A stretch of DNA of 64,000 nucleotides from Candidatus Parcubacteria bacterium (GCA_023131895.1 JAGLYZ010000003.1:1394-65393), one strand, 5' to 3'; counted from the first letter of the stretch, positions 3,249-43,900 are shown. Notes: generated from the sequence alone by a model not told the origin. Program-made: numbers and translations.

Positions 3249-4214
3249 TTAGGTTATTGGTATTTTAAACCAAAAAGTTGAACTTTTCCCTTCATAGGAC
3301 TTAAAACCTATTTTACCGCCCATTTTATCTATTACTGATTTAGCAATAAACAAACCTAATCCGCTTCCCTGGGTTTGGTATCTTAAAGCATTGCTTGCCC
3401 TGAAGAATTTCTGAAAAATATATTTTTGGTCTTCTTTAGGGATACCAACACCTTGGTCTTTAACTTCAAAATAAATATTGTTCTGGGATTGCTTTAATTT
3501 TACTTCCACCGTGCCTGCCTTTTTAGTATAACGGACAGCATTATCTATAAAATTCTCTATAGGTAATTTAATCTGGCTAGGATCAATATAAATCATTGGC
3601 AAATTCTTCTGGCAATCAAATTTTACTTTAATATTTGAAGCATCAGCAAGGGCTTTAAATTCGAAAACAAATTTCTTGACTATTTTTTCTAAATCAGTCC
3701 TTTCTTTCTTTTCAGGTATTCCATCCTTTTCCATTCTGGAAACAATTAATAAATCATTTATTAACTCCTCCATTCTAGCACTGTTCTCTTTTAACATTTT
3801 TATAAAATTCAATAAATTTTCCTCTTTAACGTCTTCAATGCCTTCAGATATTATTAGTTCAATTCCCCACTTCAGATTAGTTAAAGGAGCTCTTAACTGA
3901 TGAGATACTATGCTGATAAACTCTGATTTCATACGACTGGCTTCTGCTAATTTTTCTAAACTATGGTTGATCACAAAGGAAATAATAAACAAAACTGTTG
4001 ATAATCCAAGAATAATTAAGGCTACTGTTTCTGGATTATCAAAATAACGAGTACCGATTAAATAAGTGCCAATGGCTGTAATAACAATAATACCACCCAT
4101 TACCACAAAAAGAAATTGTGGACATTCCCAAGTAGCCAAACCATATTTTTTACATTGCTTGAAAATATTTAATTGTTCTGAAATCTTTTTTTGTTTTTTA
4201 TACTCTGATATCAT
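3249..4214 (-). CDS. sensor histidine kinase
   Basis: 321 aa with two N-terminal hydrophobic helices, H-box SHQLRAPL and HATPase_c G-boxes (DQGVGI, GSGLGL). Confidence 0.85.
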   Translation of the reverse strand: MISEYKKQKKISEQLNIFKQCKKYGLATWECPQFLFVVMGGIIVITAIGTYLIGTRYFDNPETVALIILGLSTVLFIISFVINHSLEKLAEASRMKSEFISIVSHQLRAPLTNLKWGIELIISEGIEDVKEENLLNFIKMLKENSARMEELINDLLIVSRMEKDGIPEKKERTDLEKIVKKFVFEFKALADASNIKVKFDCQKNLPMIYIDPSQIKLPIENFIDNAVRYTKKAGTVEVKLKQSQNNIYFEVKDQGVGIPKEDQKYIFQKFFRASNALRYQTQGSGLGLFIAKSVIDKMGGKIGFKSYEGKSSTFWFKIPIT

Positions 4215-9021: not shown

Positions 9022-9588
9022 ATGAAATCAGGATTCACTTTAATAGAGCTTTTATTAGTTGTTGCTATTATCTCTATTCTAACTGCTATAGTTACAATAG
9101 ATTATAGAACAGCAGGAAAAAAATTTTCCTTAGAAAGGTCTGCTAATAAATTAGCCCAAGAAATGCGAAAAACGCAGCAAATGACTATGTCAGCTGAACA
9201 AATTGGTTTACCTGGAGCAAAATTTTATCCGGAAGGAGGATATGGAATTCGTTTTGAAGAACCAGACGCTGGATCCCCCTTGGGTCAGGCATTTATTTTC
9301 GCTGATTGCGATAATAACGATCAATTTACACCCGGAAATGACATATGCAATGGCTCATTCTCTGAAAAAATTAAAGATATAGAATTAGAAAAAGACATTA
9401 AGATAAAGTCCCTTTTTCCTGTCTCTAATCTTGATATTACTTTTAAATCACCTGGCCCTACTATTATCTTTTTTTCTGAAAAAGCTGAATCGCTAGTACC
9501 TGAAGCTACAATAACCATTTCTTTTTTAGAAAACGGCAATACCAAAACTGTAAAAATCAACAAAGCTGGTTTAATAGAAGCAGAATAA
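9022..9588 (+). CDS. prepilin-type N-terminal cleavage/methylation protein (pilin/pseudopilin)
   Basis: The internal ATG at 9022 gives MKSGFTLIELLLVVAIISIL.... The upstream 46 codons of the tracked ORF (from 8884) are Tyr/Leu-rich AT-region read-through. Confidence 0.8.
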   Translation: MKSGFTLIELLLVVAIISILTAIVTIDYRTAGKKFSLERSANKLAQEMRKTQQMTMSAEQIGLPGAKFYPEGGYGIRFEEPDAGSPLGQAFIFADCDNNDQFTPGNDICNGSFSEKIKDIELEKDIKIKSLFPVSNLDITFKSPGPTIIFFSEKAESLVPEATITISFLENGNTKTVKINKAGLIEAE

Positions 9589-9607: not shown

Positions 9608-10117
9608 ATGAAAAACAAAGGTTTTACTATATTAGAGCTTTTAGTAACTATTTTTATTATTAGCATAGGCATATTAGGAGCTTCCGCGGCTATTAACAAA
9701 ACCATGAGTTTAACATCAAATTATTCCTCTAAACTTATTGCTGTTTCTCTTGCCCAAGAAGGTATTGAAATTGTTAGAAATATAAGAGACGGCAATTTTC
9801 TTGAGCAAAGGGCTTCTCCAGCTACACCTTGGAATGATGGATTTGTTACTCCTGGAGATTATGAAGCTGACTATACAATGGCAGATGGATTAGATAATTG
9901 GACTAACAGATATTTAAAAACCAATAGCAACGGTTTTTATTTTTATAGCGATAATCCTATTTATTCAGAAACTAAGTTTAAAAGAAAAATTACTATTTCG
10001 GAAATAGCCGATATTATAGACCCAAATTCCAGAGCAATCTTAGTTGAAGTATCTTGGCTGGAAAAAGGAGATACTAAAACAATTACTGCCAAAGAATATT
10101 TATGTAACTGGGAATAG
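9608..10117 (+). CDS. prepilin-type N-terminal domain protein (minor pilin)
   Basis: MKNKGFTILELLVTIFIISIGILG... Confidence 0.8.
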   Translation: MKNKGFTILELLVTIFIISIGILGASAAINKTMSLTSNYSSKLIAVSLAQEGIEIVRNIRDGNFLEQRASPATPWNDGFVTPGDYEADYTMADGLDNWTNRYLKTNSNGFYFYSDNPIYSETKFKRKITISEIADIIDPNSRAILVEVSWLEKGDTKTITAKEYLCNWE

Positions 10118-10242
10118 CAAGTCATACTAACATACTAACATTTTAACATTCTAACAAAATTCAATATAAAATGTTTATATGCTTACATGTTAGTACGTTA
10201 ATATGTTTAAATGTTAATATGTTAAAATGCTTAAATGTTAAA
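10118..10242. repeat. TAACAT/ATGTTA heptad palindromic element, copy B (inverted relative to copy A)
   Basis: CATACTAACATACTAACATTTTAACATTCTAACAAAATTCAATATAAAATGTTTATATGCTTACATGTTAGTACGTTAATATGTTTAAATGTTAATATGTTAAAATGCTTAAATGTTAAA. It ends at the ATG of the next pilin gene. Confidence 0.7.
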
Positions 10243-10824
10243 ATGACGAAAAGGGGTTTTACTTTAATGGAAATAATGGTTTCAGTAACTGCTTCTTTTT
10301 TGATTATAGGAGCTATCATCGGACTTTTTATTTCTATAAATCAATCTCAAAAAAGAATATTATCTACTTATGAACTTGTAAACCAAACCGGCTATGCTAT
10401 AGAATATATGAGCCGTGCGTTAAGAACAGGAGAAAAAGAATCAGGACAGGGGTGTCTTGCGTCTTCAGGATTGAATTATGAAATTCCAGTTATATATCAA
10501 ATTGGAGGAAATGAAAATTTAGGAACTGGCTTGAAATTTATAAATCATTTAGAGAATAATGACTGTCAGGAATTTTTTCTTGATGGAAGTCAACTAAAAT
10601 ACAGAAAAGGTATTGGAACCGTGAACGAACAAATATTAGCTTTAACTTCTAATGATCTTCAAATTATTGATTTTAAGTTTAAACTTTCAGGAAAAGACCA
10701 TGAAGACAATATTCAGCCAAGAATAACTATGCTTTTTGTTATTCAAGCTGGTGAAGAAGGGGCAAAAATCAATATTCAGACCACAGTGTCGCAAAGAAAC
10801 ATTGATACATATCAAATATATTAA
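10243..10824 (+). CDS. prepilin-type N-terminal domain protein (minor pilin)
   Basis: The ATG at 10243 gives MTKRGFTLMEIMVSVTASFLIIGAI.... The tracked start at 10171 lies inside the heptad repeat. Confidence 0.8.
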   Translation: MTKRGFTLMEIMVSVTASFLIIGAIIGLFISINQSQKRILSTYELVNQTGYAIEYMSRALRTGEKESGQGCLASSGLNYEIPVIYQIGGNENLGTGLKFINHLENNDCQEFFLDGSQLKYRKGIGTVNEQILALTSNDLQIIDFKFKLSGKDHEDNIQPRITMLFVIQAGEEGAKINIQTTVSQRNIDTYQIY

Positions 10825-13042: not shown

Positions 13043-13120
13043 AAAAAATTTTTAGAAAAGTCCGTTGAAAAGAACGGACTGTTTTTATAATAGCAAATCT
13101 AATAACTTTGTCAACTATTT

Positions 13121-13474
13121 GGTGGTGTTTGTTGGACGAAATCCGAACTTTCTTTGAGCAAAATCCAGAGGATTTTGCGGATTGAATCCCGCCCAGCGTT
13201 TCCGCCCGCCTTTGCTTCGCTACGGCGAGCAAAACAGAAAAATTTTCTAAACATTTTTTAATCGCCTGCCCCAAATTTTTTTCAATTAAGGAAAAGAAAA
13301 TTTTTCTGTTTTGATATTCTACTAACGCAGAATTGCGGAAACGCTTTCCCACCCCATAGTCCCGCTTTGCGGGACTGGCAAGCTGGCAAAAATTCATTTT
13401 CCCTACACCCCTTTTTCTTTTTGCCCGCCTGTTCTTTGACTCTGTCCTGAAAATTTTTTTGGCTGGCGTCGGGG
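13121..13474. repeat. structured ~350-bp repeat, copy X1 (body 13121-13377, 41-bp palindromic core 13385-13425, tail to 13474)
   Basis: The body is about 80% identical to the reverse complement of 21064-21314. 13378-13474 is 100% identical to the reverse complement of 14865-14961. Confidence 0.85.
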
Positions 13475-13501: not shown

Positions 13502-13993
13502 TTACAAACCCAGCCGTTCAATCATATCTTTTTTCAGATTTATTGCAAAATTTCTCGCATCTTCTAAATCTTTTTTATTAGGTCTGCCTTTGTTTAGTCC
13601 ACCAGTAAATTTCAAAAATGGAATGTATCTATCAAAAAGATATGTATCAAACCCTCTACAAGAAAACTTCCCTACAATATCAAACCCCTTTTCTAACAAT
13701 TTTTTAAAAAGTGGCCGATGATAAAACCATACAGGACCTATACCTCTTGTTGAAAAAATAAATGCCTTTTTGTTTTTCATTATAGGTAGATTATCAACAA
13801 GAGCAAGTAATGCTTTATGCTGTTTAAAAAAATAAATTCCTGAGCCAAACCCAATGAGGTCGTATTTGGAAAGAGTATTCACCTCAATCTTATTGGGTCT
13901 CAATAATTCTGCATTAAAGATTTTAGCCATTTCTTTAGCAATTTTTTCTGTATTACCATTATGTATTGATATGTAAATAATTAGAGTTTTCAT
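13502..13993 (-). CDS. flavodoxin-like fold protein
   Basis: 163 aa: MKTLIIYISIHNGNTEKIAKEMA...IGFGSGIYFFK... Confidence 0.6.
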   Translation of the reverse strand: MKTLIIYISIHNGNTEKIAKEMAKIFNAELLRPNKIEVNTLSKYDLIGFGSGIYFFKQHKALLALVDNLPIMKNKKAFIFSTRGIGPVWFYHRPLFKKLLEKGFDIVGKFSCRGFDTYLFDRYIPFLKFTGGLNKGRPNKKDLEDARNFAINLKKDMIERLGL

Positions 13994-14451
13994 ATTAACA
14001 TTTCTAGATTTTTAAACTCCTCTTTTGCGTGTTTTTCAAGCGCCTCTTCAAATGCTTTTGTAAGATAAAATTTTTTCAAAAGCAAATCGATTATTTTACC
14101 GAATAATCCTTTGTATCCAACCTCTATTTTATGAATTACTTTCGCGCCTGTGTTCGTAGATTCGAAAGCTAACGAAAAATAACCAGAAATAAGCGATTTC
14201 CATTTATAAAGCAAAAATCTATTTGGTTCAACCTTTACAAGTTTTCCAGTAAGTTTTAATCTGAAGTGGTTAAATTGTTCATCTAAATAGACAATACTTC
14301 CCATTTCATTGGGTGTTCGTTTAATAGTCTTCCATGCTTTATGGGCGGGGTGCCACTTCTTATATTTCTCATCATCCAAATCGAGAATCCAGTTATATAT
14401 CTGTTCTGGAGTTTTGCCTTTTATCTCAATTTTCGTAATTATAATAATCAT
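13990..14451 (-). CDS. SRPBCC/START-like hypothetical protein
   Basis: 153 aa. Composition and length fit the SRPBCC fold. ATGA overlap with the flavodoxin-like gene. Confidence 0.4.
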   Translation of the reverse strand: MIIIITKIEIKGKTPEQIYNWILDLDDEKYKKWHPAHKAWKTIKRTPNEMGSIVYLDEQFNHFRLKLTGKLVKVEPNRFLLYKWKSLISGYFSLAFESTNTGAKVIHKIEVGYKGLFGKIIDLLLKKFYLTKAFEEALEKHAKEEFKNLEMLI

Positions 14452-14520: not shown

Positions 14521-14733
14521 TCATTTTATTAAATCGCCAATATCAACCTTTAATGCTTTAGCGATTTTCGTTAAAGTTTCAATAGTGGGATTTGGATTTT
14601 CACCAGATTCAATTTTTACAATAGTATTATAAGCGACATCAGCAAACTTAGAAAGCTTATCTTGAGAAATCTCAAGTTTCTTTCTATAATGCTTGATATT
14701 TTTCGCTATTGTGGATAATCTTCTTGTTGACAT
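14521..14733 (-). CDS. XRE-family helix-turn-helix transcriptional regulator
   Basis: 70 aa: ...IKHYRKKLEISQDKLSKFADVAYNTIVKIESGENPNPTIETLTKIAKALKV... Confidence 0.85.
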   Translation of the reverse strand: MSTRRLSTIAKNIKHYRKKLEISQDKLSKFADVAYNTIVKIESGENPNPTIETLTKIAKALKVDIGDLIK

Positions 14734-14864: not shown

Positions 14865-14999
14865 CCCCGACGCCAGCCAAAAAAATTTTCAGGACAGAGT
14901 CAAAGAACAGGCGGGCAAAAAGAAAAAGGGGTGTAGGGAAAATGAATTTTTGCCAGCTTGCTTATTCACTCTCTGATTTAGAATTTTATTGCTCCTGAT
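14865..14999. repeat. partial repeat copy X3 (tail + core 14914-14954 + 38-bp S1 arm 14962-14999)
   Basis: 14865-14961 is the exact reverse complement of 13378-13474. 14962-14999 matches the reverse complement of 20977-21014 at 35/38. Confidence 0.85.
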
Positions 15000-15005
15000 T
15001 TTTCT

Positions 15006-15087
15006 CTATAACGAATCGAGGATAAAAGAAATTCTGCGAGGCAGAATTTGGACGGAGCAAAGCGGAGTCTTTTATCCTCTGTTATCG
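15006..15087 (-). other. attC-like folded palindrome 4
   Basis: The minus strand reads CGATAAC-A-GAGGATAAAAGA-(38 nt)-TCTTTTATCCTC-GATTC-GTTATAG. Confidence 0.55.
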
Positions 15088-15170
15088 GAGTCTTGGCAAG
15101 CTGAGACCGAGCCACGAAGTGGCGAAGAGTTGCGGGGCTTTAATTTTTGTCATTAAAAGTTTTTTTCTCT

Positions 15171-16298
15171 TCACTCAGTTGTAGGATATAAAAGTCTTTC
15201 CCCTGATGCGACTCTCTTTACTAAATCTAAATTAACAAGTCTACAAAGGTCTTCTACTTTAGATTTAGCTGAATAGAAACCTAATGGATGATTTTCCATT
15301 GGAGGTATCCAAGAATCCTTATAGATAGTAACCCTAAGTTGTTCTATTTCTTGAATTTCATCATTATTGAGTTCATGATCAAAATATAAGAAAAGTTTCA
15401 TTTCGTCTGTGATATTTTTTTGCATGGCTTGCATTACAACTAGACTTTCAAATTTTTTGCTGTCTCTAATATCTTCTAGGTCACATTCAATTATAGATGG
15501 TTTTGCCTTGCATCCACATTGTTTACTGTTTTCCTCTGTAATTAAATCTGAATTTGAAATCCATGGACAGGGTTCTGATTCGTTTTTGGCTATTGCTTTA
15601 CAATACTCTTCACAGTTAATTTCTCTTTTTACCGTGCATTTGTTATCAACGCAAATAGGTGTGAATTTCTCTAAATTTAGGCAGTGAGAACATTGTGGTG
15701 GTGAGTAATAAGGGCAAGTTGGCGGGCACTTTGCTTTCATCTCCTGTTCGATTTTTTCTTTACTCTCTTTATTCACAACATTTGGTGATTCTCTTTTACA
15801 TGGGTCTGGAGGTGGACAACATCTAATAAAATCCAAAAATACACAATCTGAATCTTTTTCACAATATTTTTCATTATCTATGACTTTTGTCTTTTGGCTA
15901 CAACAATCAAAATAACATGTCCAGTCATATCCAAAAACAAAATTGCCTGATTTCCTTTCTTTTACAGAAGAAGCTTTAATAAATTTACAATCGCGATCAA
16001 TAAGATTAATATTTTTATATCTTTGCCATTCATCATACCAAACAGAGTCTTTTCCAATCTCCTTAGAGCACATCACTTGGATAAAATCCTTTAATCTATT
16101 TTCACACAATCTTTTTTGTTCTTCTGCGTTGGCTGGAGGACCTGCCTCATCGCCGGCACCCATTTCAAAGTAAATATTACTACAATCTACCTTTACCTGT
16201 TGAGTTGGTTGACTGCTCCAAAGCCACAATCCACCAACTACAACAATTCCAATTACTAAACAAACTATTCCAATTTTAATTTTCTTTTCCATAGTCAT
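15171..16298 (-). CDS. membrane-anchored cysteine-rich hypothetical protein (cassette ORF)
   Basis: 375 aa with about 30 Cys. N-terminal anchor ...VVVGGLWLWSSQPTQQV. Confidence 0.55.
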   Translation of the reverse strand: MTMEKKIKIGIVCLVIGIVVVGGLWLWSSQPTQQVKVDCSNIYFEMGAGDEAGPPANAEEQKRLCENRLKDFIQVMCSKEIGKDSVWYDEWQRYKNINLIDRDCKFIKASSVKERKSGNFVFGYDWTCYFDCCSQKTKVIDNEKYCEKDSDCVFLDFIRCCPPPDPCKRESPNVVNKESKEKIEQEMKAKCPPTCPYYSPPQCSHCLNLEKFTPICVDNKCTVKREINCEEYCKAIAKNESEPCPWISNSDLITEENSKQCGCKAKPSIIECDLEDIRDSKKFESLVVMQAMQKNITDEMKLFLYFDHELNNDEIQEIEQLRVTIYKDSWIPPMENHPLGFYSAKSKVEDLCRLVNLDLVKRVASGERLLYPTTE

Positions 16299-16348
16299 AA
16301 TTTAATTGTATTAAAGTTAATAAATATTTTCAAAAGCCTCGCCATTTC

Positions 16349-16426
16349 CGATAACGTATCCCAGATATACGAAGTCCCGAAGGGATTTGAGCGTAACGAA
16401 GTGAAGCCGTATATCTGGTGTTAGAT
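16349..16426 (-). other. attC-like folded palindrome 3
   Basis: The minus strand reads ATCTAAC-A-CCAGATATACG-(36 nt)-CGTATATCTGG-GATAC-GTTATCG. The TAA inside ATCTAAC is the stop codon of the upstream ORF. Confidence 0.55.
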
Positions 16427-17173
16427 GTTGTAAATTTTTAGGGATTTTGCGAATCTTCTCTCCCTGTACAACAACATACCGGCATAGATAACGCTTACAT
16501 TTAAAACAATTTGGGAAACTATTTCTATAAAAATTATCAATGGATTAAATCCAAAGAATATGACATAGTCAATCGTTCCATCTAATAAACCATATACTGG
16601 TGGTACCAAAAGAAATGTCTCAAGCCACATATAGATAAACGGTATCATAGCAATGCTAAATAATGTTGCTCGTCCTAACCAGTTGTTTTTTATATCAAAA
16701 TGTAATGCTAACAATATGTTCAGCAGCATAAAAATAACGGGTATCCGAATTGAAGTTAATATAAAAACGAATTCTTCTAATCCCATCAGGTCCCCTAAAA
16801 TATATGAGCCAAACCACAGTGTAAAGGCGGGGAATAATCCGGGATGCTCTAATGCCATTTCAGGTGTCAATGAAGATGTACTTAAAGCGTCTATAGCCCC
16901 CCATGATGTTAAAATCACAAAAAACCAGATTGGAACCCCAATCAGACCACGATATAAGTCCCACTTATACAATTTTTTAAGATTACCTTCTGGTGGTTTA
17001 CTCATTAACATACTGATAAACAGAATTGTAAAGCCAGCAACAATAAATACCATTCCTAATGCGCCAATACCCGCTTGATCTTCTGTAATTTGCGGCTTTG
17101 ACATTGTATCCAAAACCATGAATATACCAATAATTCCTAAAATCAAACCAATTGCAAATATGATTTTTTTCAT
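16421..17173 (-). CDS. polytopic membrane protein (hypothetical, cassette ORF)
   Basis: 250 aa with about 7 hydrophobic helices. Confidence 0.55.
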   Translation of the reverse strand: MKKIIFAIGLILGIIGIFMVLDTMSKPQITEDQAGIGALGMVFIVAGFTILFISMLMSKPPEGNLKKLYKWDLYRGLIGVPIWFFVILTSWGAIDALSTSSLTPEMALEHPGLFPAFTLWFGSYILGDLMGLEEFVFILTSIRIPVIFMLLNILLALHFDIKNNWLGRATLFSIAMIPFIYMWLETFLLVPPVYGLLDGTIDYVIFFGFNPLIIFIEIVSQIVLNVSVIYAGMLLYRERRFAKSLKIYNI

Positions 17174-17244
17174 AATTAATCCTATTGAAAATCTTTATTA
17201 ATAAAACTTTTCCCGAGCAAAATCCCGTTAAGAAAATTTATTGC

Positions 17245-17345
17245 ATCTAACATCTGGGATATACGAAGTTTTTCTGGAACGAAGTGGAAGAAAAATTTGG
17301 GTGAGGGGCGAGCCGAGCCCCGAACCGTATATCCTCTTGTTGTAC
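17245..17345 (-). other. attC-like folded palindrome 2
   Basis: The minus strand reads GTACAAC-AAG-AGGATATACG-(60 nt)-CGTATATCCC-AGAT-GTTAGAT. Confidence 0.5.
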
Positions 17346-17522
17346 GCCCCGACGACTGAAGGGAGGAGAGCGCAGCGTGGCTTGAGTTCAAAAAATATTT
17401 TTCGTTCTTATCCATCAAATAGGCTTTCGTTTATTTCTTATAAATTTGATTTTTTCCTATTTTAAAAATGGAAGAGGGGTTAGGGGTGAATTTCATTTTT
17501 TATGGTCAACCATATCATTATA

Positions 17523-18344
17523 TTATTGATGTTTATCAAGATTAACAACTTCAAACTTTGGATAATGAACTACAAATTGCGGAACACTAACATTTGAGTC
17601 CAATAATATTTTTTTTGTCTTATCAATAAATTCATTAAACTGCGTTTCATCCACCAGTATTTGATAATTTCTCAGGTAGTTTTCTCTAAGTATCTTTTTA
17701 AATTCTCCACCAGCGGCTTTTAAATTCATCATTTCAACAATGTAGTAATCTGCAAAATTTTTTGTTTTTGAAATCAATAATTTGATATTGATTAATTCAG
17801 GAATTACTGGGGATATAAAACAAAAAGTTTTAATCCTATTATTTTTTAGAGTTTTCAACGCCTTTATTCTTTCTTCATTACTGGGAGAATGCGGTTCAAA
17901 TAAATCTTTTGTATTTCCTTCAAAAGTATTAATTGTCAAACCGACTTCTATTTTTTTGAATTGTTTTAATAAATCAATGTCCCTTGTTATTAAATCTGAT
18001 TTTGTTAATATTGAAAGTTCTGTGCGTTTGTCCATGCTTTGCAAAATACGGCGTGTCAACTGCAATTCTTTTTCTGCTGGCTGATAAGGGTCGGAGACAG
18101 AAGACATAATGACTTTTCCATTAACAATTTTTTTTGCGAGTTCAGGAGCATTGATTTTCGCTTCTACCCAATCACCCCATTTCCCGTGATTTTTCCACCG
18201 GCACATAAATTTTGCGTAGCAATAAGTACAAGCATATTCACAGCCAATATATTGGTTTATTACATACTTTGCACTAGGAGTTTTCGTTTTTGTAAATATA
18301 CTCTTTGCATTAATTTTAATTATTTTGGCAGTCATAGTAATCAC
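17523..18344 (-). CDS. radical SAM protein, SplB/DNA-photolyase-like (COG1533-type)
   Basis: 273 aa with a CxxxCxxC cluster motif GCEYACTYCYAKF near the N-terminus. Confidence 0.7.
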   Translation of the reverse strand: MITMTAKIIKINAKSIFTKTKTPSAKYVINQYIGCEYACTYCYAKFMCRWKNHGKWGDWVEAKINAPELAKKIVNGKVIMSSVSDPYQPAEKELQLTRRILQSMDKRTELSILTKSDLITRDIDLLKQFKKIEVGLTINTFEGNTKDLFEPHSPSNEERIKALKTLKNNRIKTFCFISPVIPELINIKLLISKTKNFADYYIVEMMNLKAAGGEFKKILRENYLRNYQILVDETQFNEFIDKTKKILLDSNVSVPQFVVHYPKFEVVNLDKHQ

Positions 18345-18850
18345 TTAGAAGCACTTGCCTTACAGAGAGATCTCATTTTGCATTGAGAGCATCCTTTCTT
18401 TCTTCCGAATTGGTTTATTATCATAATCACAATAAAACCCAATAGAGAGATTCCACCAGAAATTAAAAATTCTCTATTCAAAAATATAGCAATTGGAATA
18501 ACAATAATTGGAATGAGTGTTAATAATCCCCAAGTCATGCCTGCTAATTTCATTCCGAGTTTGTAATCTCCTGATTTTTGTTTAAACTGGCATGAACTTA
18601 ATTTGCTCCAGCCACTTCCGCATAATTTACCATAATAATAGCAATGTGTGCAAAGATGTTTTCTTAGGACAATTCCCAACATTACTAATGCAAATGACAA
18701 ATAGAGTATGGAAATAATAGGGAATCCTGCAAATTTAAATGCCGACATTCCGTACGCCGCTAATCCAAACCATAATAACAACAGCGTGTTGGTTAAAATT
18801 ACTGATGATTTTGGATAATTCTCCAATCCTTTTTCGTATAGTTTTTCCAT
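18341..18850 (-). CDS. membrane protein with CxxC motifs (hypothetical)
   Basis: 169 aa with 4 TM segments, plus CTHCYYYGKLCGSGW and GCSQCKMRSLC. It overlaps the radical SAM start by 4 nt. Confidence 0.5.
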   Translation of the reverse strand: MEKLYEKGLENYPKSSVILTNTLLLLWFGLAAYGMSAFKFAGFPIISILYLSFALVMLGIVLRKHLCTHCYYYGKLCGSGWSKLSSCQFKQKSGDYKLGMKLAGMTWGLLTLIPIIVIPIAIFLNREFLISGGISLLGFIVIMIINQFGRKKGCSQCKMRSLCKASASK

Positions 18851-18852
18851 AA

Positions 18853-19182
18853 TTACTTTTCTCCAAAGCGACCAATAAAATAACCCATCAAACTTCCGAT
18901 AATAAGATTTGTAACCAGCATTGGAACTAGTTCTTGGGGACTGCCAGCAACTACTACAATCATCATTGGAAAGGCTATTAAAAAGAAAATTAGCGTTCCT
19001 TTTAAAGTATTATTCAATTTTAGGTTTGATGTTGATATGAGAAAACCGCCGATAACACACATCAAAAATGCTGATACTAATGTGTCCCAAGTCATTTTCA
19101 TAAGCATCATAGGGATTATATCAACTATACCAAAAATAATACCAATGATAAGTCCTACTTTTGTTTTGCTCATTTTTTCCAT
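18853..19182 (-). CDS. small membrane protein (hypothetical)
   Basis: 109 aa with 3-4 TM segments. Its stop lies 2 nt before the next start. Confidence 0.5.
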   Translation of the reverse strand: MEKMSKTKVGLIIGIIFGIVDIIPMMLMKMTWDTLVSAFLMCVIGGFLISTSNLKLNNTLKGTLIFFLIAFPMMIVVVAGSPQELVPMLVTNLIIGSLMGYFIGRFGEK

Positions 19183-19381
19183 AATCTTTACCTCTTTATT
19201 AAATATAAATATCGTTATTATATAAGTTTTGTTTTTCTTTTCAATTTATAAGTTGTTTTCGTAACGGAGTGGAGAAAACACAAATTATCCCCCTCTTTTG
19301 TTTCAGAAAAAATCAAATTTATTTCCCTTTTTAGAAAGCCCGTCATTCTTTTGTCTTTTAGAAAAATATTTTTTGAATTGC

Positions 19382-19472
19382 GTATAACATATAGTGCTAA
19401 AAGAAGTTGTTGCGTAGCAACAATTTGGATGGAACGACCGCAGGGAGTGAAATCTTTTAGCACTTGTTAAGT
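19382..19472 (-). other. attC-like folded palindrome 1
   Basis: The minus strand reads ACTTAAC-A-AGTGCTAAAAG-(50 nt)-CTTTTAGCACT-ATAT-GTTATAC. The plus strand ends in GTTAAGT (fits GTTRRRY). Confidence 0.55.
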
Positions 19473-19501
19473 GAAGTATGACGCAGCCGCCGAGTTAAAA
19501 T

Positions 19502-19945
19502 CTATTTCATCTTCTCGAGTTCCATTATGTTGTTAGGAGGTGTGGTAGCTTCATGAACTGTTATTTTACCTGTGAAGTCCACAAATACGTATCTGCATGG
19601 GTGTGCCCAGTTGGCCCATGGAGCGTCATCAACGAAGAAGAACCAACCCTCCTTCTGTGGGAGTTCAATTGAACTGTGCCAACTTTCTATGGTTGTGCCA
19701 GCTTTCACTGGTTTGGGACCTACATATACCCATTTCCCTTCGGTACTTCCATTCAAAAGCTCTGATATGACCAGATTGTAAGCATCCGTCTTGGATATGT
19801 TTTTATCTGCTTCAAATTCTTTCCATTCCTCAACTTGATCTAGTTGTTGACTATTCCAAATCCACAATCCTCCAACTAAAACAATTACCATAATCAAAAT
19901 TCCAATAAAGATTTTTGTTTTTGAATTCATAATAGTTTTCCTCAT
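19502..19945 (-). CDS. membrane-anchored/exported hypothetical protein (first cassette ORF)
   Basis: 147 aa. The N-terminal anchor ...VLVGGLWIWNSQQLDQV is shared with the 375-aa ORF. Confidence 0.55.
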   Translation of the reverse strand: MRKTIMNSKTKIFIGILIMVIVLVGGLWIWNSQQLDQVEEWKEFEADKNISKTDAYNLVISELLNGSTEGKWVYVGPKPVKAGTTIESWHSSIELPQKEGWFFFVDDAPWANWAHPCRYVFVDFTGKITVHEATTPPNNIMELEKMK

Positions 19946-20010
19946 AATTTTATTGTTAGACTTATTTATTAATCTTATGAGTTTATATGCTCGGCGGCGA
20001 GTAATATTTC

Positions 20011-20086
20011 ATTTAACTCGTTTCTATACGAATTGAATGTATAATATCGACCTTTTGTTGCATATTATACGAACTTAATGTATAAT
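20011..20086. promoter_or_regulatory. attI-like region: GTTAAAT core plus two 21-bp direct repeats
   Basis: Minus-strand GTTAAAT at 20017-20011. TATACGAATTGAATGTATAAT (20025-20045) and TATACGAACTTAATGTATAAT (20066-20086) match 18/21, and each has inverted TATAC/GTATA ends. Confidence 0.45.
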
Positions 20087-20146: not shown

Positions 20147-20962
20147 ATGCAACAAAAATATTTGGAACAAACAAGGCGGGAATTAAAATTAAGAAATTAT
20201 AGTTTCAAAACCATAAAGGCCTATCTCGGTTGTTTAAAAGAATATTTTGATTTTAAAAAATTTAATTTAGAAAAAATAGACGAGGAAAATATAAAGCAGT
20301 TTTTATTAAATAAACAAGACAAAAATTATTCTTCACAAACGATAAATCTTTACTTAAATGCAATAAAATTTTTTTACCGCGAAGTATTGAAAATTCCCGA
20401 AAAGATAAATTTGAAATTCGCCAAGCGAAGTAAAAAACTACCGATTGTTCTATCAAGAGAAGAAATTGAAAACATCATTGAGTCAATCAAAAATCCAAAG
20501 CATAAATTAATAATCTCTTTAGCTTATGGCGCCGGCTTGAGAATCAGTGAAGTTATTAGTCTAAAAGTAAAAGATGTCGATTTAGAAGAATTAACTATCC
20601 ATCTTAAAAACGCCAAAGGCAAAAAGGACAGAATCACTATTTTCCCGGAAAAAATTAGAAGAGATATTCAAGGTTTAATAGCCAGAAAAAATTCGGACGA
20701 TTATCTTTTTGAAAGCGAACGGGGCGGAAAATTAACCGAGCGGACAGCCCAAAAAGTTTTTGAAAACGCACTCCGAGGAACGGGTATAAAAAAAGACGCT
20801 ACATTCCATTCGTTAAGACACAGCTTTGCAACACATTTATTAGAAAATGGTGTTGATGTCAGGTATGTGCAGGAACTTTTAGGGCATCAGAATATCAGAA
20901 CAACTCAAATTTATACTCAGGTAACAAATCCAAAACTCAAAAACATTAAAAGTCCGTTATGA
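20147..20962 (+). CDS. tyrosine site-specific recombinase (IntI/Xer-like, lacks the IntI-specific insertion)
   Basis: 271 aa: ...YSFKTIKAYLGCLKEYF..., KKLPIVLSREEI, LAYGAGLRISEVISLKVKDVDL, KGKKDR, HSLRHSFATHLLENGVDVRYVQELLGHQNIRTTQIYTQV...IKSPL. The R..K..HxxR..H..Y catalytic pattern is present. Confidence 0.9.
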   Translation: MQQKYLEQTRRELKLRNYSFKTIKAYLGCLKEYFDFKKFNLEKIDEENIKQFLLNKQDKNYSSQTINLYLNAIKFFYREVLKIPEKINLKFAKRSKKLPIVLSREEIENIIESIKNPKHKLIISLAYGAGLRISEVISLKVKDVDLEELTIHLKNAKGKKDRITIFPEKIRRDIQGLIARKNSDDYLFESERGGKLTERTAQKVFENALRGTGIKKDATFHSLRHSFATHLLENGVDVRYVQELLGHQNIRTTQIYTQVTNPKLKNIKSPL

Positions 20963-20976
20963 TTAAAACGGGAAAA

Positions 20977-21314
20977 ATCAGAAGCAATAAAACTCTAAAT
21001 CAGAAAGTGAATAAGCTTAGTAAGCAAAAAGAAAAAGGGATGTGGGGGAAATGAATTTTTGCCCGCCTGCTGTCCCTCAAAACGGGACTGGGGTTGGGAG
21101 CGTTTCCGCAATTCTGCGTTAGCAGAATATCAAAACAGAAAAATTTTCTTTTCCTTAATTGAAAAAAATTTTGCGAGGGGCTATTAAAAAAATGTAGAGA
21201 AAATTTTTCTGTTTTGCTCGCCGTCAGGCGAGTGAAAACGCTGGGTCGGGGTTCAAAAATCCGCTTGCGGATTTTTCTCAAAATGAGTTCGGATTTCGTC
21301 CAGCAAACACCACC
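20977..21314. repeat. structured repeat copy X2 (S1 arm 20977-21014, core 21023-21063, inverted body 21064-21314)
   Basis: Reverse-complement match to the X1 body. The S1 arm and core are shared with X3. Confidence 0.85.
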
Positions 21315-21398
21315 ACTTCGCTTTTTGTAATTATAGATTAATGTTTATTATGCTCGTGTTTGCACCACGTAGCTCCGAGGCGTAACCGAGGAGCGAAG

Positions 21399-23912: not shown

Positions 23913-25169
23913 TTATTTTATTATCTCTTTTAATTTTTCTAATAACTCTTTTTCTTTTACTTTAATTTGTTCTCCGGTTTTCATATTTCTAAGAGTTATT
24001 TGATTTTTTATTGCTTCTTCCGGACCAATAATTATGACAAAAGGAATTTCTTTTTTATTCGCATATCTTAGTTGTTTTTCCAAACTGGTTTCAAAATCAA
24101 GATAAATTTCATTATTAATATTTTCGGAACGCAATGCTTGAGAAATTTTTATACACTGGTCTAAAAAAGATTTATCAATTATGGTAATTAAAATTTTAGT
24201 GTTTGTTGAAGAAATTTCAGGCCAAAGATTTAATTCTTGTATAGCATCAACTATTCTGTCAATTCCTATTGTTGTGCCGCACGCAGGAATGTCTTTTTCC
24301 GCGAACATTCCGATTAGTTTATCATATCTTCCGCCGCCGGCAATTGAACCAATTTTTGGCTTTTCAACAACTGCTTCATAAATAGGTCCTGTATAATAAT
24401 CCAGTCCTCTTGCTAAAAATGGATCAAATTTGAGAAAATTTTCTGGCACGCTTAATTTTTTTACAAGTAATAATACCTGTTGAAGAAACAAATCCGGTTT
24501 TGCTTTTTTAATAAGCTGAAAAATTTTTTCAGCTGTTTGCGTTTCAATATTTTTTTCTATCAATTCTTGTTTAACTTGCTCAAAAGAAATTTTGTCTAAT
24601 TTATCAATAGATTGTATGGCTGAAAGAATTTTGTCTTGAGATACACCAGCGTTTTTCATAATAGAAAATAGAATTTGGCGGCTATTAATGCGGATTATAA
24701 ATTTTTCAAAACCAATTTTTCGCAGAACCGTATAAATAATTGCGATAATTTCAGCATCAGCCAAAGATGATTTACTGCCAATAGTGTCAATATCACATTG
24801 AGTAAATTCTCTATAACGGCCCTTTTTTGGTTTGTCTGCTCTCCAAACCGGCTGGATTTGGTAGCGTTTAAATGGTTTTGGAATATTGAGATACTGGGCA
24901 ACAAATCGCGACAAAGGAACAGTAAGGTCATACCGTAAAGCTACATCGCGACTGCCTTGATCTTTGAAACGATAAACTAATTTATTTGCTTCACTTCCTA
25001 ATTTACTTAGTAATATCTCAGAGTATTCCAAGCTTGGTGTTTCAATCGGGACAAAGCCATAAGATTCAAAAACATTTTTTACAATATCAAAAACCTTTTG
25101 GCGAATAATCATTTGTTCAGGTGAAAAATCACGAAATCCTTTTAAAATTTTTGGTTCAATTTTTTCCAT
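23913..25169 (-). CDS. hisS: histidine--tRNA ligase
   Basis: 418 aa: ...KGFRDFSPEQM...YRFKDQGSRDVALRYDLTVPLSRF...YQIQPVWRADKPKKGRYREFTQCD...GGGRYD... Confidence 0.9.
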   Translation of the reverse strand: MEKIEPKILKGFRDFSPEQMIIRQKVFDIVKNVFESYGFVPIETPSLEYSEILLSKLGSEANKLVYRFKDQGSRDVALRYDLTVPLSRFVAQYLNIPKPFKRYQIQPVWRADKPKKGRYREFTQCDIDTIGSKSSLADAEIIAIIYTVLRKIGFEKFIIRINSRQILFSIMKNAGVSQDKILSAIQSIDKLDKISFEQVKQELIEKNIETQTAEKIFQLIKKAKPDLFLQQVLLLVKKLSVPENFLKFDPFLARGLDYYTGPIYEAVVEKPKIGSIAGGGRYDKLIGMFAEKDIPACGTTIGIDRIVDAIQELNLWPEISSTNTKILITIIDKSFLDQCIKISQALRSENINNEIYLDFETSLEKQLRYANKKEIPFVIIIGPEEAIKNQITLRNMKTGEQIKVKEKELLEKLKEIIK

Positions 25170-25176
25170 ATTTTTG

Positions 25177-25251
25177 GGTGGACGACGGGGAACGATCCCG
25201 CATCCCTAGCTCCACAAGCTAGTACTCTAAACCAATTGAGCTACATCCACC
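25177..25251 (-). tRNA. tRNA-His (anticodon GTG) with G-1; atypical T loop
   Basis: G-1 + GTGGATG/CGTCCAC + C73, anticodon arm CTAGC-TTGTGGA-GCTAG, T arm GCGGG-ATCGTTC-CCCGT (A54/T58 instead of T54/A58). Confidence 0.7.
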
Positions 25252-25261
25252 ATAAAACAAA

Positions 25262-25575
25262 AAACTCCCGTTCCTCTTACAAGATAAGAAAAATCATTAT
25301 AGATTTTTCCCAGAGGAACGAGAGTTTTAATATAAAATTCCCGCGGTCCCATCCTCGTTTCCTAACACCTTAAAAGGTAGCAGGACACTTGATTAAGTTA
25401 ACGATGAGTGACACCGTCTCAGCTTGTATCTTCTTAGGATTTTCTTGCCGAGCTGCTCCAGAGGCGTGTTTAGAAATTTTTTAGCGCTTGGCTTTCACTA
25501 CCCCAAGCTCGCTTTAGCTTATATTATATTTCTTACTATTCCTCTGTACAAACGCATTTCGTATTTAATTTTAAT
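25262..25575 (-). ncRNA. T-box riboswitch leader, His specifier (CAC)
   Basis: Stem I: CAGAGG/CCUCUG base, specifier loop AAUAGUA / AAA-CAC-G, distal GCUUGG-GGUAGUGAAAG-CCAAGC. Antiterminator: GAGGA-UGGGACC-GCGGGA..UCUCGU-UCCUC. Terminator: AAAACUCUCGUUCCUCU..AGAGGAACGGGAGUUUUUU. Confidence 0.85.
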
Positions 25576-25614: not shown

Positions 25615-25625
25615 GTTTTTTTGTG

Positions 25626-25698
25626 GGCGAACGAGGAGATTCGAACTCCCCCTTAGATCTCCACAGGATCTAGTGCTAACCACTACACTACGTTCGCC
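25626..25698 (-). tRNA. tRNA-His (anticodon GTG), canonical
   Basis: G-1 + GCGAACG/CGTTCGC + C73, anticodon arm AGATC-CTGTGGA-GATCT, T arm GGGAG-TTCGAAT-CTCCT. Confidence 0.8.
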
Positions 25699-40960: not shown

Positions 40961-43900
40961 TCATACTCCGTCTTCGGAAGGCGTGGTTGTGTCAACTGGA
41001 GGAATATCTGGAACATCTGGAACATCTGGCTCGCTCCCTTCGACTTCAACACACTCGCCGAGTTGCTTTTGCCATTCGCCATTTTCAATCCAGGTACACC
41101 AAACATGGCCAGTAGCTTTATCCCGCATCTCCATTTGCTCAGCCGCCATTGTTTTTGTCTTTAATTTTTGGACCTCCAAAGTACCGTATTCACTGACGAT
41201 TAAGCCGAGATTAGATAGATTATTGATAATTGATAATTGATCATCATTGAGAATATTATCGTTCTCGTCAGTAATAACTGCCAAATCCTGGCCCTGCCAG
41301 CCAACATTAACCAAAGTCATCACCTTGCCGATTTCGCTTTGTACTACTTCACAACTTTCAGGTTCTATATCTTCTCCTTCTTCGTTTTTAATAAAGCTGA
41401 TTTCACAATTAGTCACTGTACCGTCAAACGGCTCAAAGGCCTGACCAATAATCCTGCCAGGGCCAGTGGCTTTCATAGCCACCCCTGGCTCAGAAGAAGA
41501 AGTTAAAAAATCACCGATTTTAATAGGCCCGTTTTCCAGATTAACTTTAACCGGCACTCTACCAACTAAAGCAACCGGAACCTGGAAAGGATAATCTTCG
41601 GTATTACAACCGCTACCTAAAATTAAACCTGGTTTAGTTGAAATTACACCAATTATTGTTTGTTCGTAAGAACTTACTGTTTTTTCAACTAAGTTTGATT
41701 CTTTAATTCTGACTACATCTCCTGGTTCAAGTTCTTTGTTTGAGAAAAATAATTCAGCGACATCAGATTCGCCGCTATGAGCAGTGCCATAATAAATATC
41801 TCCGGCTATATTGCCAGCGCAATCATTACCGTCTGCTCTTACGCATAACGCTCCTACAACCTTTAATTTAGCAGTGGGCGTTGTGTCGCCAATACCAACA
41901 CTGCCTTCAATGATTACTCCATCAGTGGGTGAAGTAGTGGTCATATAGCTAGAGCCGAAAGCAGCATTACCGGCTACGGATAACATTGCTAAGGGCACGG
42001 TTGTGCCAATGCCCAGGTTGCCGCCAAAATAGGCATCTCCTTTGCCAGAGATATTGCCTGCGCTGAACAAACCACCAGAACCGATATTGACGCCGCCGCT
42101 AATCTGGAGCTGGCCCTGAGCGATAATATCATTTCTTACCTGAAGACTGCCAGCTTCCAAAGAATGAGCCATAATTGATGTTGCCTCAATTCCTTTAATA
42201 TCCACCACTACTACTCTGGCTGGGGATGTACATGTTAAAATATAGGCGTATCTTCCTGAGACAGCAATGGAATAACCATAGTTTTCACCCGTATCCAGGA
42301 TGACTGCGCCAATTCGGATTGGGCTAACAGGATTAGAAATATCCACCACTACTACTCTCGCTGGAGATGTCCATGTTAAAACATAGGCATATCTGCCCGA
42401 GACAGCAATGGAATAACTAATGTTTTCACCCGCAGCCAGGGTGACTGCGCCAATTCGGGTTGGAGAGGCAGGATTAGAAATATCCACCACTACTACCATG
42501 GCTGGGGATGTGTATGTTGAAACATAGGCGTATCTTCCAGAGACAGCAATGGAATAACCCCAGTCTTCACCCGCAGCCAGGGTAACTGCGCCAACTCGGG
42601 TTGGAGAGGCAGGATTAGAAATATCCACCACTACTACTCTGGCTGGGGATGTCTCTGTTGAAACATAGGCATATCTTCTCGAGACAGCAATGGAAAGACC
42701 TTCGTCTTCACCCGCAGCCAGGGTGACTGCGCCAACTCGGGTTGGGCTAACAGGATTAGAAATATCCACCACTACTACTCTGGCTGGGGATGTGCCTGTT
42801 GAAACATAGGCATATCTTCCCGAGACAGCAATGGAATAACCATAGTTTTCACCCGCAGCCAGGGTGACTGCGCCAACTCGGGTTGGGCTAACAGGATTAG
42901 AAATATCCACCACTACTACTCTGGCTGGGTTTGTAAATATTGAAACATAGGCGTATCTTCCCGAGACAGCAATGGAATAACCAGTGTTTTCACCCGCAGC
43001 CAGGGTGACTGCGCCAATTCTGGTTGGGCTAACAGGATTAGAAATATCCACCACTACTACCCTGGCTGGGGATGTGTATGTTGAAACATAGGCGTATCTT
43101 CCAGAGACAGCAATGGAATAACCAGTGTTTTCACCCGCAGCCAGGGTGACTGCGCCAACTCGGGTTGGAGAGGCATCAGCATTGGCGATATTTTGAATAT
43201 TCCCCACAACATCCAATTTTGTTCCTGGCGTTGCTGTTCCTATTCCGACATTGCCATTTACAAAAGCAGCTGCATACTCTGCACCTGCTCCTGTGCCAGC
43301 ATCTACATACAGGCCATAGCCAGTTGTTCCTGATGCTGCTGTAATTGTTGAGTATAATCCATAGATTGTATCTGCTCCTGATGCAGTGAAGTAGCCAGCA
43401 ATATTAATGGAAGTTGTGCCAGTATTGGCAACTGAAGAATATATACCATAAGCTGTATGGGACGCATTAGCATTGGTGCCAGAGCGAGAGAGGTTGAGAA
43501 GCTTTGAGGTCCCGCTTGCTCCGCCAGCAGTGGAAGTAGAAGTAATATCTAAACCAGTTCCAGTTATTAAGCCATTAACTGAAAGAGCCATTCCAGTGCC
43601 GGAGGTAATTGAGTCGCCAGTGAGATTTACAATATCACCAGTGCCGGCTTGGGTCACGGTGAGAGCGGTGAGAGTGGCATCTGAATCTGTCTCAATTACA
43701 AATAATCCTTCCCCTGCGGCGCCGGTGCGGTTGCCGGCAATAGAAGTAGCGGCGCCAACAACAGAAAGCCCGTCGGTTGTTTTATTGCCGCGAAGGTCAT
43801 TATCAGAAATAGTGTTGTAATTTGAAGAGCCTGTCTCTTCTATTCCATATTCCTGTGTCTTTGTCCCCTGAGTATCAGTACAACGATTATCGCTAATGAT

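Follow-up and report, generated by a model that had tools for sequence, protein, structure and literature searches.

Which kind of site lies between a tyrosine recombinase gene and a row of oppositely oriented open reading frames (ORFs) in a Parcubacteria chromosome? The question is raised by a stretch of 64,000 nucleotides (nt) from Candidatus Parcubacteria bacterium (GCA_023131895.1 JAGLYZ010000003.1:1394-65393), here called the window and meaning the whole stretch, in which an earlier note, made from the sequence alone, had pointed out an attI-like region next to a recombinase gene. As described below, the segment 20004-20086 is very probably an attI-type primary recombination site, i.e., the point of cassette insertion, of an integron-like platform in a chromosome of the candidate phyla radiation (CPR). 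The G+C content of the window is ~33%, and the genes found around the locus are housekeeping ones (clpP, nusA, tRNAs, htrA, and hisS).

For comparison, the species genomes of GTDB were scanned with the recombinase, and 80 related loci were obtained (designated by L numbers). Their recombinases are 61-93% identical to that of the window, and each best match comes from a different genome assembly. Nearly all the loci belong to Patescibacteria/CPR; one lies on an Altiarchaeales scaffold (L017, IMC4, 1.39 Mb) and one in a Methanosarcinaceae bin (L060). These two loci carry the same recombinase (71% and 68% identity, respectively) and the same attI, and L060 shares with the window a near-identical attC-like core and a cassette leader. 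Their archaeal assignment points to cross-domain transfer or mis-binning.

The conserved site between cassettes and recombinase gene

Between the first cassette ORF and the recombinase gene, the plus strand carries ATTTAAC at 20011-20017, i.e., GTTAAAT when read along the minus (cassette) strand (20017-20011), followed by two direct repeats, TATACGAATTGAATGTATAAT at 20025-20045 and TATACGAACTTAATGTATAAT at 20066-20086. The repeats are identical at 19 of 21 positions and start 41 nt apart, and their 21-mer pattern occurs twice in the window versus 0.01 occurrences expected from shuffled sequences. Repeat 2 lies within a perfect 7-9-7 palindrome, ATTATAC-N9-GTATAAT (20064-20086); the palindrome of repeat 1 is imperfect, with two mismatches. 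The elements listed in the earlier note were found at or beside the positions it assigned to them, except for the lower bound given for the repeats.

The feature lies far beyond chance, because the same architecture is present upstream of homologous recombinases in 64-71 of the 80 independent loci. The motif YAAC|T[CG]GTT[TA]YTATRCGAA, in which the bar marks the junction discussed below, precedes the recombinase gene in 71 of them. Box geometry was measured in the 64 loci where both boxes, one in each repeat (Table 1), could be placed. Box 1 follows AAC at an offset of 7 nt in every one of them (64/64). Box 2 is spaced 41 nt from box 1 in 53 of the 64 loci and 40-42 nt in 62, while the distance from box 2 to the ATG varies between 31 and 121 nt. 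The two repeats 41 nt apart, already seen in the earlier note, are thus confirmed, and their fixed geometry is conserved across CPR lineages.

The motif TTATRCGAA is common to boxes 1 and 2, to the R' arm GTTATRYGAAAT, which is the reverse complement of the family consensus of the cassette-side flank (Table 1), and to the inner arm of the attC-like hairpins described below, ATATnnGAAGTT. In the window, the cassette-derived arm is ATTTCATTTAA, whose reverse complement, GTTAAATGAAAT, is a degenerate form of the motif. Written as inverted arms, the core reads TTCGTATA-ACTCGTTTC-TATACGAA, with 9 nt (ACTCGTTTC) between the two motif cores and the junction 1-2 bases inside the central region; this core geometry is normal for a tyrosine recombinase. 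Two inverted pairs overlap here, the R' arm with box 1 (their TATACGAA cores being 9 nt apart) and box 1 with box 1b (5 nt), the latter being perfect only in some loci: in the distant L017, L018, L060, and L072, repeat 1 is the perfect palindrome TATACGAA-GTGTT-TTCGTATA.

The left half of the repeat, TTATRCGAA, is its conserved and presumably protein-bound part. The other half, GTATAAT, serves as the -10 element in repeat 2, whereas in repeat 1 it is a degenerate copy of the box in inverted orientation. The earlier note had described palindromic 21-bp repeats resembling the attC ends: the left half is indeed shared with the attC-like arm, but the 21-nt palindrome as such is not conserved across the family. 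GTTAAAT does fit the integron core GTTRRRY, as it had been read, but the core consensus of the family is GTTATRY.

Among 10 close relatives, identity is 78% over the 40 nt to the right of AAC| and 40% over the 40 nt to its left. The window and L002 are nearly identical in attI and share 93% identity in the recombinase, but their first cassettes are unrelated. On these comparisons, AAC| is the border between conserved platform DNA and variable cassette DNA, and the variant junctions that the earlier note had suggested looking for at GTTAAAT do occur, with different cassettes left of AAC| in close relatives. The junction is also the exact starting point of three contigs, and 16 of the 80 end at most 320 nt upstream of the ATG, which is the expected effect of a strain-variable array on assemblies. 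As in an attI, then, the site lies beside the recombinase gene and cassettes are joined at a conserved GTT; the crossover, resolved to TAAC/GTTT, would fall at or beside AAC| (20015-20017), i.e., G|TT on the cassette strand.

Hairpins and cassette ends

The ORFs to the left of the recombinase gene all lie on the opposite strand and have little or no family assignment; they encode membrane proteins, a radical S-adenosylmethionine (SAM) enzyme, and a Cys-rich protein. The intergenic sequences contain hairpins of the form nTATAAC-GTTTn-GGGATATnnGAAGTT-(hairpin)-AATTTGGG-(hairpin)-AnCCnnATATCCC-nT-GTTATnT. RNAalifold, applied to 30 hairpins, predicted 15 pairs, nine with compensatory changes. A covariance model, R1, was built from these 30 hairpins, including the four sites of the window as seed sequences; it replaced a crude hairpin scan, in which the enrichment was 2-3-fold with many false positives.

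Over the whole window, R1 identified exactly four sites, all within 15006-19472 and on one strand. Over the 80 loci it identified 98 sites, which share a single strand orientation with respect to the recombinase; 96 lie upstream of the recombinase gene. At least one site was found in 46 of the 52 loci having at least 1.5 kb of upstream sequence. The sole two downstream hits, again on the same strand, are both in L065 (3607-3696 and 4896-4994) and may represent a second array or a rearrangement. When 91 hits were aligned, 95.9% of the cells were paired and 10 of the 15 pairs showed compensatory changes; the covariation score was 0.547, versus 0.14 for shuffled and at most 0.10 for slid alignments, in an alignment that had been fitted to the model's structure.

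As in attC sites, these are imperfect inverted repeats (R''..AAC/GTT..R'), more conserved in structure than in sequence, one per cassette and co-oriented. Their consensus departs from the canonical attC in having GTTATRY and conserved inner motifs, and an asymmetric internal loop (3-5 nt versus 1 nt) separates AAC/GTT from the stem. The hairpin at 17245-17345 and that at 617-716 of L060 have nearly identical cores but different AAC/GTT ends; like cores with unlike ends are what is expected from end exchange. A G.T wobble beside AAC/GTT is conserved in 79 of 91 sites and pairs only on the strand complementary to the ORFs. A second one, at the base of inner hairpin 1, is present in 65 of 80 sites, pairs on the same strand only, and is accompanied by A-T/T-A covariation (46 versus 17). 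By analogy, the two conserved wobbles suggest folding of the bottom strand, as in integrons.

A 75-nt variant of the hairpin, with a 19-bp stem flanked by AAC and GTT, scores poorly with R1. It is present in L031 (53-128) and in four copies in a single array of L068 (1630-1704, 2338-2412, 4853-4927, and 5676-5750), identical except for their first bases.

For cassettes that enter as circles through exchange at AAC/GTT, the flank following the GTT of a hairpin is expected to complement the flank preceding the next AAC, which comes from the same cassette, and not the flank of its own AAC. With the attI junction included, the complementarity of own-cassette flanks is 5.26 of 9 positions, versus 3.61 of 9 for local flanks. 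Own complementarity exceeds local complementarity in 60 cases versus 9 (p=1.4e-9), and the reconstituted junctions are more stable than the local ones in 68 cases versus 14 (p=1.9e-10). All four cassettes of the window (Table 1) show the signature, which reads as the footprint of circular cassettes inserted at AAC/GTT. Thus, the cassettes have both properties expected of mobile units, i.e., circularly permuted ends and the occurrence of different cassettes at the same attI. In the window they encode no recombinase, and the longest ORF between sites reads away from attI and the recombinase in 77 of 80 cases.

At the attI itself, the arm ATATTTCATTTAAC is complementary to GTTAAGTGAAG (19466-19476), the far end of cassette 1, so that GTTAAAT sits at the junction of platform and cassette DNA with a flank that complements the far end of the hairpin of cassette 1, in agreement with its reading as the core. 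The reconstituted circular junction of this cassette folds at -65.8 kcal/mol, versus -33.9 kcal/mol for the local one, and the base of the reconstituted attC stem is the pair CTCGGCGGC/GCCGCCGAG. This gives a place to the GC-rich inverted pair that had been noted as bracketing the first cassette.

The leader (19249-19388) and trailer (17346-17500) of cassette 2 are inverse-complementary over ~115 nt. Related copies of both (72-89% identity) are found in at least 12 further loci, frequently right beside attI (L033, L034, L060, and L075), and resemble a module of cassette ends common to many loci, or else an attC stem of much greater length.

A scan of IMG/VR with an 18-mer of attI gave eight matches, all without the recombinase, box 2, or an R1 match at E<=0.001. 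These were taken as chance matches, and a phage-borne platform, for which they give no evidence, was not retained.

Table 1. Features of the integron-like platform, in window coordinates.
Feature	Position	Strand	Evidence or remark
Left arm of platform-flanking inverted repeat, abutting the last attC-like site	14909-15004	.	Like arrangement in L001 and L005
attC-like hairpin 4 (last cassette)	15006-15087	+	R1 56.7 bits
Cassette 4: ORF 15171-16298 (Cys-rich, membrane-anchored)	15013-16355	-	Own ends TTTCCGATAAC, GTTATCGGAGT
attC-like hairpin 3 (cassette 3), stem contains ATATACGAAGT	16349-16426	+	R1 57.6 bits
Cassette 3: ORF 16421-17173 (polytopic membrane protein)	16356-17251	-	Own ends GCATCTAAC, GTTAGATGT
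attC-like hairpin 2 (cassette 2), stem contains ATATACGAAGTT	17245-17345	+	R1 62.7 bits
Cassette 2: three ORFs, 18853-19182, 18341-18850, and radical SAM gene 17523-18344	17252-19388	-	Own ends GCGTATAAC, GTTGTACGC
attC-like hairpin 1 (cassette 1)	19382-19472	+	R1 67.1 bits (seed); stem GTGCTAAAAGA/TCTTTTAGCAC between AAC and GTT
Cassette 1: ORF 19502-19945 (membrane-anchored, 147 aa) and hairpin	19389-20017	-	AAC| junctions as boundaries
GCCGCCGAG, partner of 19990-20001	19486-19494	+	Same reconstituted fold as 19990-20001
GC-rich element CTCGGCGGCGAG	19990-20001	+	Minimum free energy structure of reconstituted junction; pairs with GCCGCCGAG
Cassette-side arm of attI-type core, ATATTTCATTTAAC, includes GTTAAAT	20004-20017	+	Family consensus ATttc..aTAAC; homology lost to the left
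Central region TCGTTTC, between AAC junction and box 1	20018-20024	+	7 nt in 64/64 loci; consensus TcGTTtt
Direct repeat 1: box 1 TATACGAA (20025-20032, platform-side arm) and degenerate inverted partner TGTATAAT (20038-20045)	20025-20045	+	
Recombinase promoter with box 2: -35 TTGCAT 20058-20063, box 2 TTATACGAA 20065-20073, -10 TATAAT 20081-20086	20058-20086	+	
Tyrosine recombinase, 271 aa, Xer/IntI-like, without the IntI-specific insert	20147-20962	+	Pfam PF00589 and PF13495
Right arm of platform-flanking inverted repeat, starting 10 nt after the recombinase stop	20972-21067	.	Continues as structured repeat to 21315

The recombinase, its promoter, and a possible mechanism

The recombinase is identical to MCK4520767.1, from a Candidatus Parcubacteria metagenome-assembled genome, and has the Pfam domains Phage_integrase and Phage_int_SAM_4. 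It belongs to the Xer family, passing the model NF040815 (recomb_XerA_Arch, named "site-specific tyrosine recombinase/integron integrase") with 241.7 bits versus a cutoff of 220. It fails the integron integrase model TIGR02249 (226.3 versus 265) and NF011946 (144 versus 435), matching each in two stretches, and it is far under the cutoffs of the XerC and XerD equivalogs (189 versus 335 and 188 versus 330, respectively). The best matches among solved structures are VchIntIA (2a3v, E 2.7e-46, in two stretches) and the archaeal XerA (4a8e, E 2.4e-43, in one stretch), with about equal scores.

In the alignment to VchIntIA, IntI residues ~204-240, i.e., the IntI-specific insert, have no counterpart in the query, and the additional domain that characterizes IntI near patch III was not found. 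Because the insert is absent, the protein is, by its sequence, not a canonical integron integrase. The 80 homologues are all ~265-272 aa long; homologues of ~270 aa fall into more than 7,800 clusters in public data, most of which bear the name XerD or "tyrosine-type recombinase/integrase". The analogy with attI drawn in the earlier note is therefore borne out by the conservation of the site, its junction, and its cassettes, but does not extend to the recombinase as a canonical integron integrase: the locus resembles a working integron, yet fails the defining feature of the integrase. GTTATGA at the stop codon of the recombinase gene had been considered as a second recombination site and was dropped, not being conserved in L001.

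The family consensus of the box 2 region, TTGtAT-aTTATaCGAA.ttatg.-tA.a.T (or TTGtATaTTATaCGAA.ttatg.tA.a.T), corresponds to a sigma-70-type -35/17/-10 promoter (TTGTAT-17-TAnanT) with box 2 in the spacer. In the window, TATAAT follows TTGCAT by 17 nt and precedes the ATG by 60 nt, and box 2 is part of direct repeat 2. The overlap of this repeat with the recombinase promoter, claimed in the earlier note, is thus found in the conserved promoter, with the TATAAT of the repeat as the -10. In integrons, the cassettes are driven by a promoter, Pc, located in intI or attI. On the minus strand here, a TTAATA-17-TATAAT match at 20092-20064 points into the cassette array; promoter-like matches in this AT-rich region are at the level of shuffled sequences.

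We propose that a lox/dif-like core is formed by a cassette-derived arm facing the platform arm, box 1, and that the strands would be exchanged at AAC| or next to it, i.e., at G|TT when read on the cassette strand. Each circular cassette would bear a site of ~80-140 nt, made of YAAC, an asymmetric internal loop, a 10-11-bp stem with TATnnGAA, two inner hairpins, and GTT. The 271-aa recombinase would insert these circles at the site, thereby building a co-oriented array that reads away from its own gene. The one-strand wobbles would be consistent with catalysis on folded bottom strands, both attI x attC and attC x attC, as in integrons. Box 2, which repeats box 1 in direct orientation at a distance of four helical turns, could be an accessory recombinase-binding site, like DR1 and DR2 of attI1, and since it lies between the -35 and -10 of the recombinase promoter, expression of the recombinase may be self-limiting. 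On these specific roles of box 2 and on single-strand recombination, our confidence is evenly balanced with our doubt.

Weighing the explanations, and known systems

Several points weigh against a cassette insertion site. The binding of the recombinase and the recombination itself are predictions from sequence comparison, and the crossover can be placed only within TAAC/GTTT, because both AAC and GTT are invariant. Some of the own-end comparisons fail, likely where intermediate sites were missed by the model, and the covariation of the 91 hits comes, as mentioned, from an alignment fitted to the structure. Over the main stem (helix 2), the general count of G.T versus A.C is 26 versus 18 and shows no significant strand preference, so that only the two specific conserved wobbles are informative on the strand. 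A consensus promoter scan of this AT-rich region was no richer than shuffled sequences, which leaves the promoter argument to conservation across loci, and the -35 TTGCAT fits the TTGACA consensus at three of six positions. Finally, the IntI insert is held necessary for attC recombination in the studies of Messier and Roy (2001) and MacDonald et al. (2006), as cited in PMC9668308 and PMC8138268.

Could the locus be a chromosomal dif-type site for dimer resolution, with a housekeeping Xer of the "Cand" group and hairpin cassettes that are hitch-hikers like the integrative mobile elements exploiting Xer (IMEX), or irrelevant? The recombinase passes the XerA equivalog and its homologues are named XerD, Smyshlyaev et al. 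(2021) treat the Xer-like recombinases of CPR as Xer substitutes, box 1 makes a dif-like palindrome in some loci, and the gene is highly conserved, the 80 best hits coming each from a different assembly. However, the site does not lie at a replication terminus as far as the window tells: GC skew does not switch there but stays negative to its left and right, over the interval 1 to ~54 kb, and gene orientation is unchanged. A terminus-type skew polarity was seen in only 4 of 40 loci, whose short flanks make this test weak for the loci other than the window. Moreover, a dif site explains neither the fixed 41-nt position of box 2 nor the one-sided, oriented arrays, nor a junction 7 nt outside the palindrome of box 1. 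We consider this explanation unlikely, although the roles of dif and cassette site are not mutually exclusive and a dual role is possible. The skew minimum near 54 kb was also considered as dnaA/oriC; the ORFs there encode a PilB-type ATPase and RuvB, and no origin is claimed.

The other explanations leave out recombination at the repeats or place it elsewhere. The repeats would be purely transcriptional if they were duplicated -10/-35 boxes or operators at divergent promoters, as the TATAAT on both strands of repeat 2, the minus-strand promoter match toward the cassettes, and the conserved -35/-10 pair around box 2 would suggest. Nevertheless, the offsets of junction, box 1, and box 2 are fixed while the distance to the ATG is free, the conserved half is TATRCGAA, shared with the arms of the cassette hairpins and the R' ends, and not TATAAT, and promoter matches are at the shuffle level; this explanation is very unlikely. 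It is still less credible that the hairpins are ordinary intergenic repeats, e.g., terminators or sequences similar to repetitive extragenic palindromes (REP) or miniature inverted-repeat transposable elements (MITE), adjacent to the recombinase by coincidence. Hairpins do follow ORFs, where terminators belong, and CPR genomes do carry repeated intergenic elements, but only four sites exist in 64 kb, all at most 5 kb from the recombinase, the bias in strand (98/98) and upstream position (96/98) holds across the 80 loci, near-identical cores bear different ends in different genomes, and complementarity of own ends, offset by one unit, is unexpected for terminators or MITEs. Just as improbable is a larger mobile or invertible element that comprises the whole 6-kb platform, with the long inverted repeats at its borders and the 21-nt repeats as its end-binding sites, and that is moved or flipped by the recombinase. 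The platform is in fact bracketed by inverted repeats of at least 96 nt in the window, 100 nt in L001, and 220 nt in L005, and a perfect 97-nt inverted repeat lies nearby; yet the 21-nt repeats are internal, ~950 nt from the right inverted repeat, they have no sequence in common with the inverted repeats, which lack TATRCGAA, and the junction evidence puts strand exchange at AAC| beside box 1.

The flanking repeats themselves have a highly structured outer part of ~290 nt, at 13120-13424 (reverse complement) and 21024-21315, with z ~-5 on both strands. A tmRNA- or tRNA-like integration target was considered for this repeat, which ends in ..CACCACCA, and was rejected: ARAGORN and Rfam (gathering threshold and E<=1) gave only chance microRNA matches, and the repeat is better described as the outer part of the platform-flanking inverted repeats. 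In L001, positions 3941-4039 pair with a region starting ~10 nt after the recombinase stop and, in L005, positions 263-481 pair with the region ~30-250 nt after it. The left flanking arm of the window is interrupted by a three-gene segment. The 97-nt inverted repeat (13378-13474 and 14865-14961, 100% complementary) encloses a flavodoxin-like gene (13502-13993), an SRPBCC-like gene (13990-14451), and an XRE-type helix-turn-helix gene (14521-14733); this segment, at the distal end of the array, could be invertible or very recently duplicated.

Having weighed these explanations, we return to the attI-type site and compare it with known systems. As in integrons, a tyrosine recombinase gene diverges from a co-oriented cassette array, with an insertion site ending in GTT between them; cassettes are separated by imperfect palindromes from ..AAC to GTT.., kept more in structure than in sequence; ends are circularly permuted, and the wobbles favor folding of the strand complementary to the ORFs. 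In class 1 integrons, attI carries two direct-repeat IntI binding sites beside the core, and the additional direct-repeat copies of the motif found here resemble DR1 and DR2 of attI1, which accompany its L and R core boxes. Unlike integrons, the recombinase lacks the ~37-aa IntI insert and scores under the TIGR02249 cutoff, the core is GTTATRY and not GTTRRRY, the hairpins have the asymmetric 3-5/1-nt internal loop and the inner motifs GAAGTT ... AATTTGGG in place of canonical extrahelical bases, and attI is strongly conserved across phylum-level lineages in hosts that are CPR/Patescibacteria.

With Xer/dif and IMEX of the CTX-phi type, the platform shares a recombinase of the Xer-like family, a core of inverted arms around a short central region, and a hairpin-folded substrate that would enter a double-stranded chromosomal site. 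A dif core is a single palindrome of ~28 bp (11-6-11). The site described here differs in lying off a skew switch, in the coupling of the recombinase gene to the site, in the ordered multi-cassette arrays, and in the box 2 at fixed distance. An IMEX, by definition, has no recombinase of its own and integrates at the dif site of its host; the cassettes encode no recombinase, but a dedicated recombinase gene accompanies their target, which lies off the terminus. The archaeal XerA proteins of Pyrococcus abyssi (4a8e) and Thermoplasma acidophilum (5hxy) are similar over the full length (E 2.4e-43 and 5.4e-41), have the same domain layout without the insert, and share the NF040815 assignment, but XerA is known as a dif resolvase, for which cassette arrays or attC-like partners are not described. 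The pdif modules of Acinetobacter plasmids are likewise gene modules bounded by Xer-type sites in varied contexts, but pdif are 28-bp double-stranded sites in alternating orientation, with no hairpin partner, dedicated adjacent recombinase, or single insertion point.

Cre/loxP also has inverted arms around a central region of ~8-9 bp, but the evidence of homology is limited to the tyrosine recombinase superfamily, and Cre uses two identical double-stranded sites. The arm of loxP is TATACGAAGTTAT; the inner arm of two attC-like hairpins, ATATACGAAGTT (16361-16374 and 17259-17272), matches it at 11 of 13 positions, which may be a coincidence or reflect shared arm recognition.

Elsewhere in the window, a T-box leader (25311-25561, minus strand, Rfam 93.2 bits) precedes a tRNA-His gene (25176-25250, minus strand) and hisS (23913-25169, minus strand), with a second tRNA-His gene (25625-25697) just upstream of the leader. 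At 10121-10247, a 24-nt unit (GTTTATATGCTTACATGTTAGTAC-like) is repeated three times in tandem; inverted copies occur immediately upstream, and the units lie at the start of an ORF that adjoins prepilin-like genes (N-terminal GFTLIELL motifs at 9030-9071 and 9619-9660). A giant ORF (40961-47290, minus strand) encodes 2,109 aa and includes a locally GC-rich segment, with a GC content of 0.47 at 42-44 kb versus 0.33 elsewhere.

As to previous reports, Smyshlyaev et al. (2021) assign the Xer-like recombinases of CPR to the subgroup "Cand", presumed Xer substitutes, and consider the IntI insert essential for integron function; the integrases of the archaeal integrons of Ghaly et al. (2022) possess the additional domain; and CPR phyla are not mentioned in the IntegronFinder 2.0 survey. 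Integron-like arrays in CPR are not described in the literature searched, the coverage of which was incomplete and gives no proof of novelty, and automated tools may already be labelling some of the loci as integrons.

Integron integrases are defined by an extra domain held necessary for recombination of folded attC sites, and integrons are scarcely documented in CPR, a large share of bacterial diversity with tiny genomes. Here the architectural hallmarks of integrons are all present, but the recombinase is a 271-aa Xer-like protein that lacks this domain. Should the platform be functional, the IntI insert would be no prerequisite for cassette capture, and a concrete, testable intermediate between Xer/dif, IMEX, and integrons would be available; a gene-exchange platform would be identified in CPR, in a family of more than 7,800 protein clusters, the assembly breaks beside the recombinase gene would be explained, and the compact recombinase with its short, well-defined sites could become a tool. 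Tentatively, and with slightly less conviction than doubt, we see in these loci a widespread and undescribed sister system of integrons in CPR/Patescibacteria, and possibly in some archaea, in which a minimal, insert-less Xer-type recombinase would capture hairpin cassettes at a lox/dif-like, promoter-regulating attI. Such a system would be either an ancestral intermediate from Xer to integrons or an independent invention of single-strand cassette capture, and it would also rank among the main routes by which genes enter and leave these reduced genomes.

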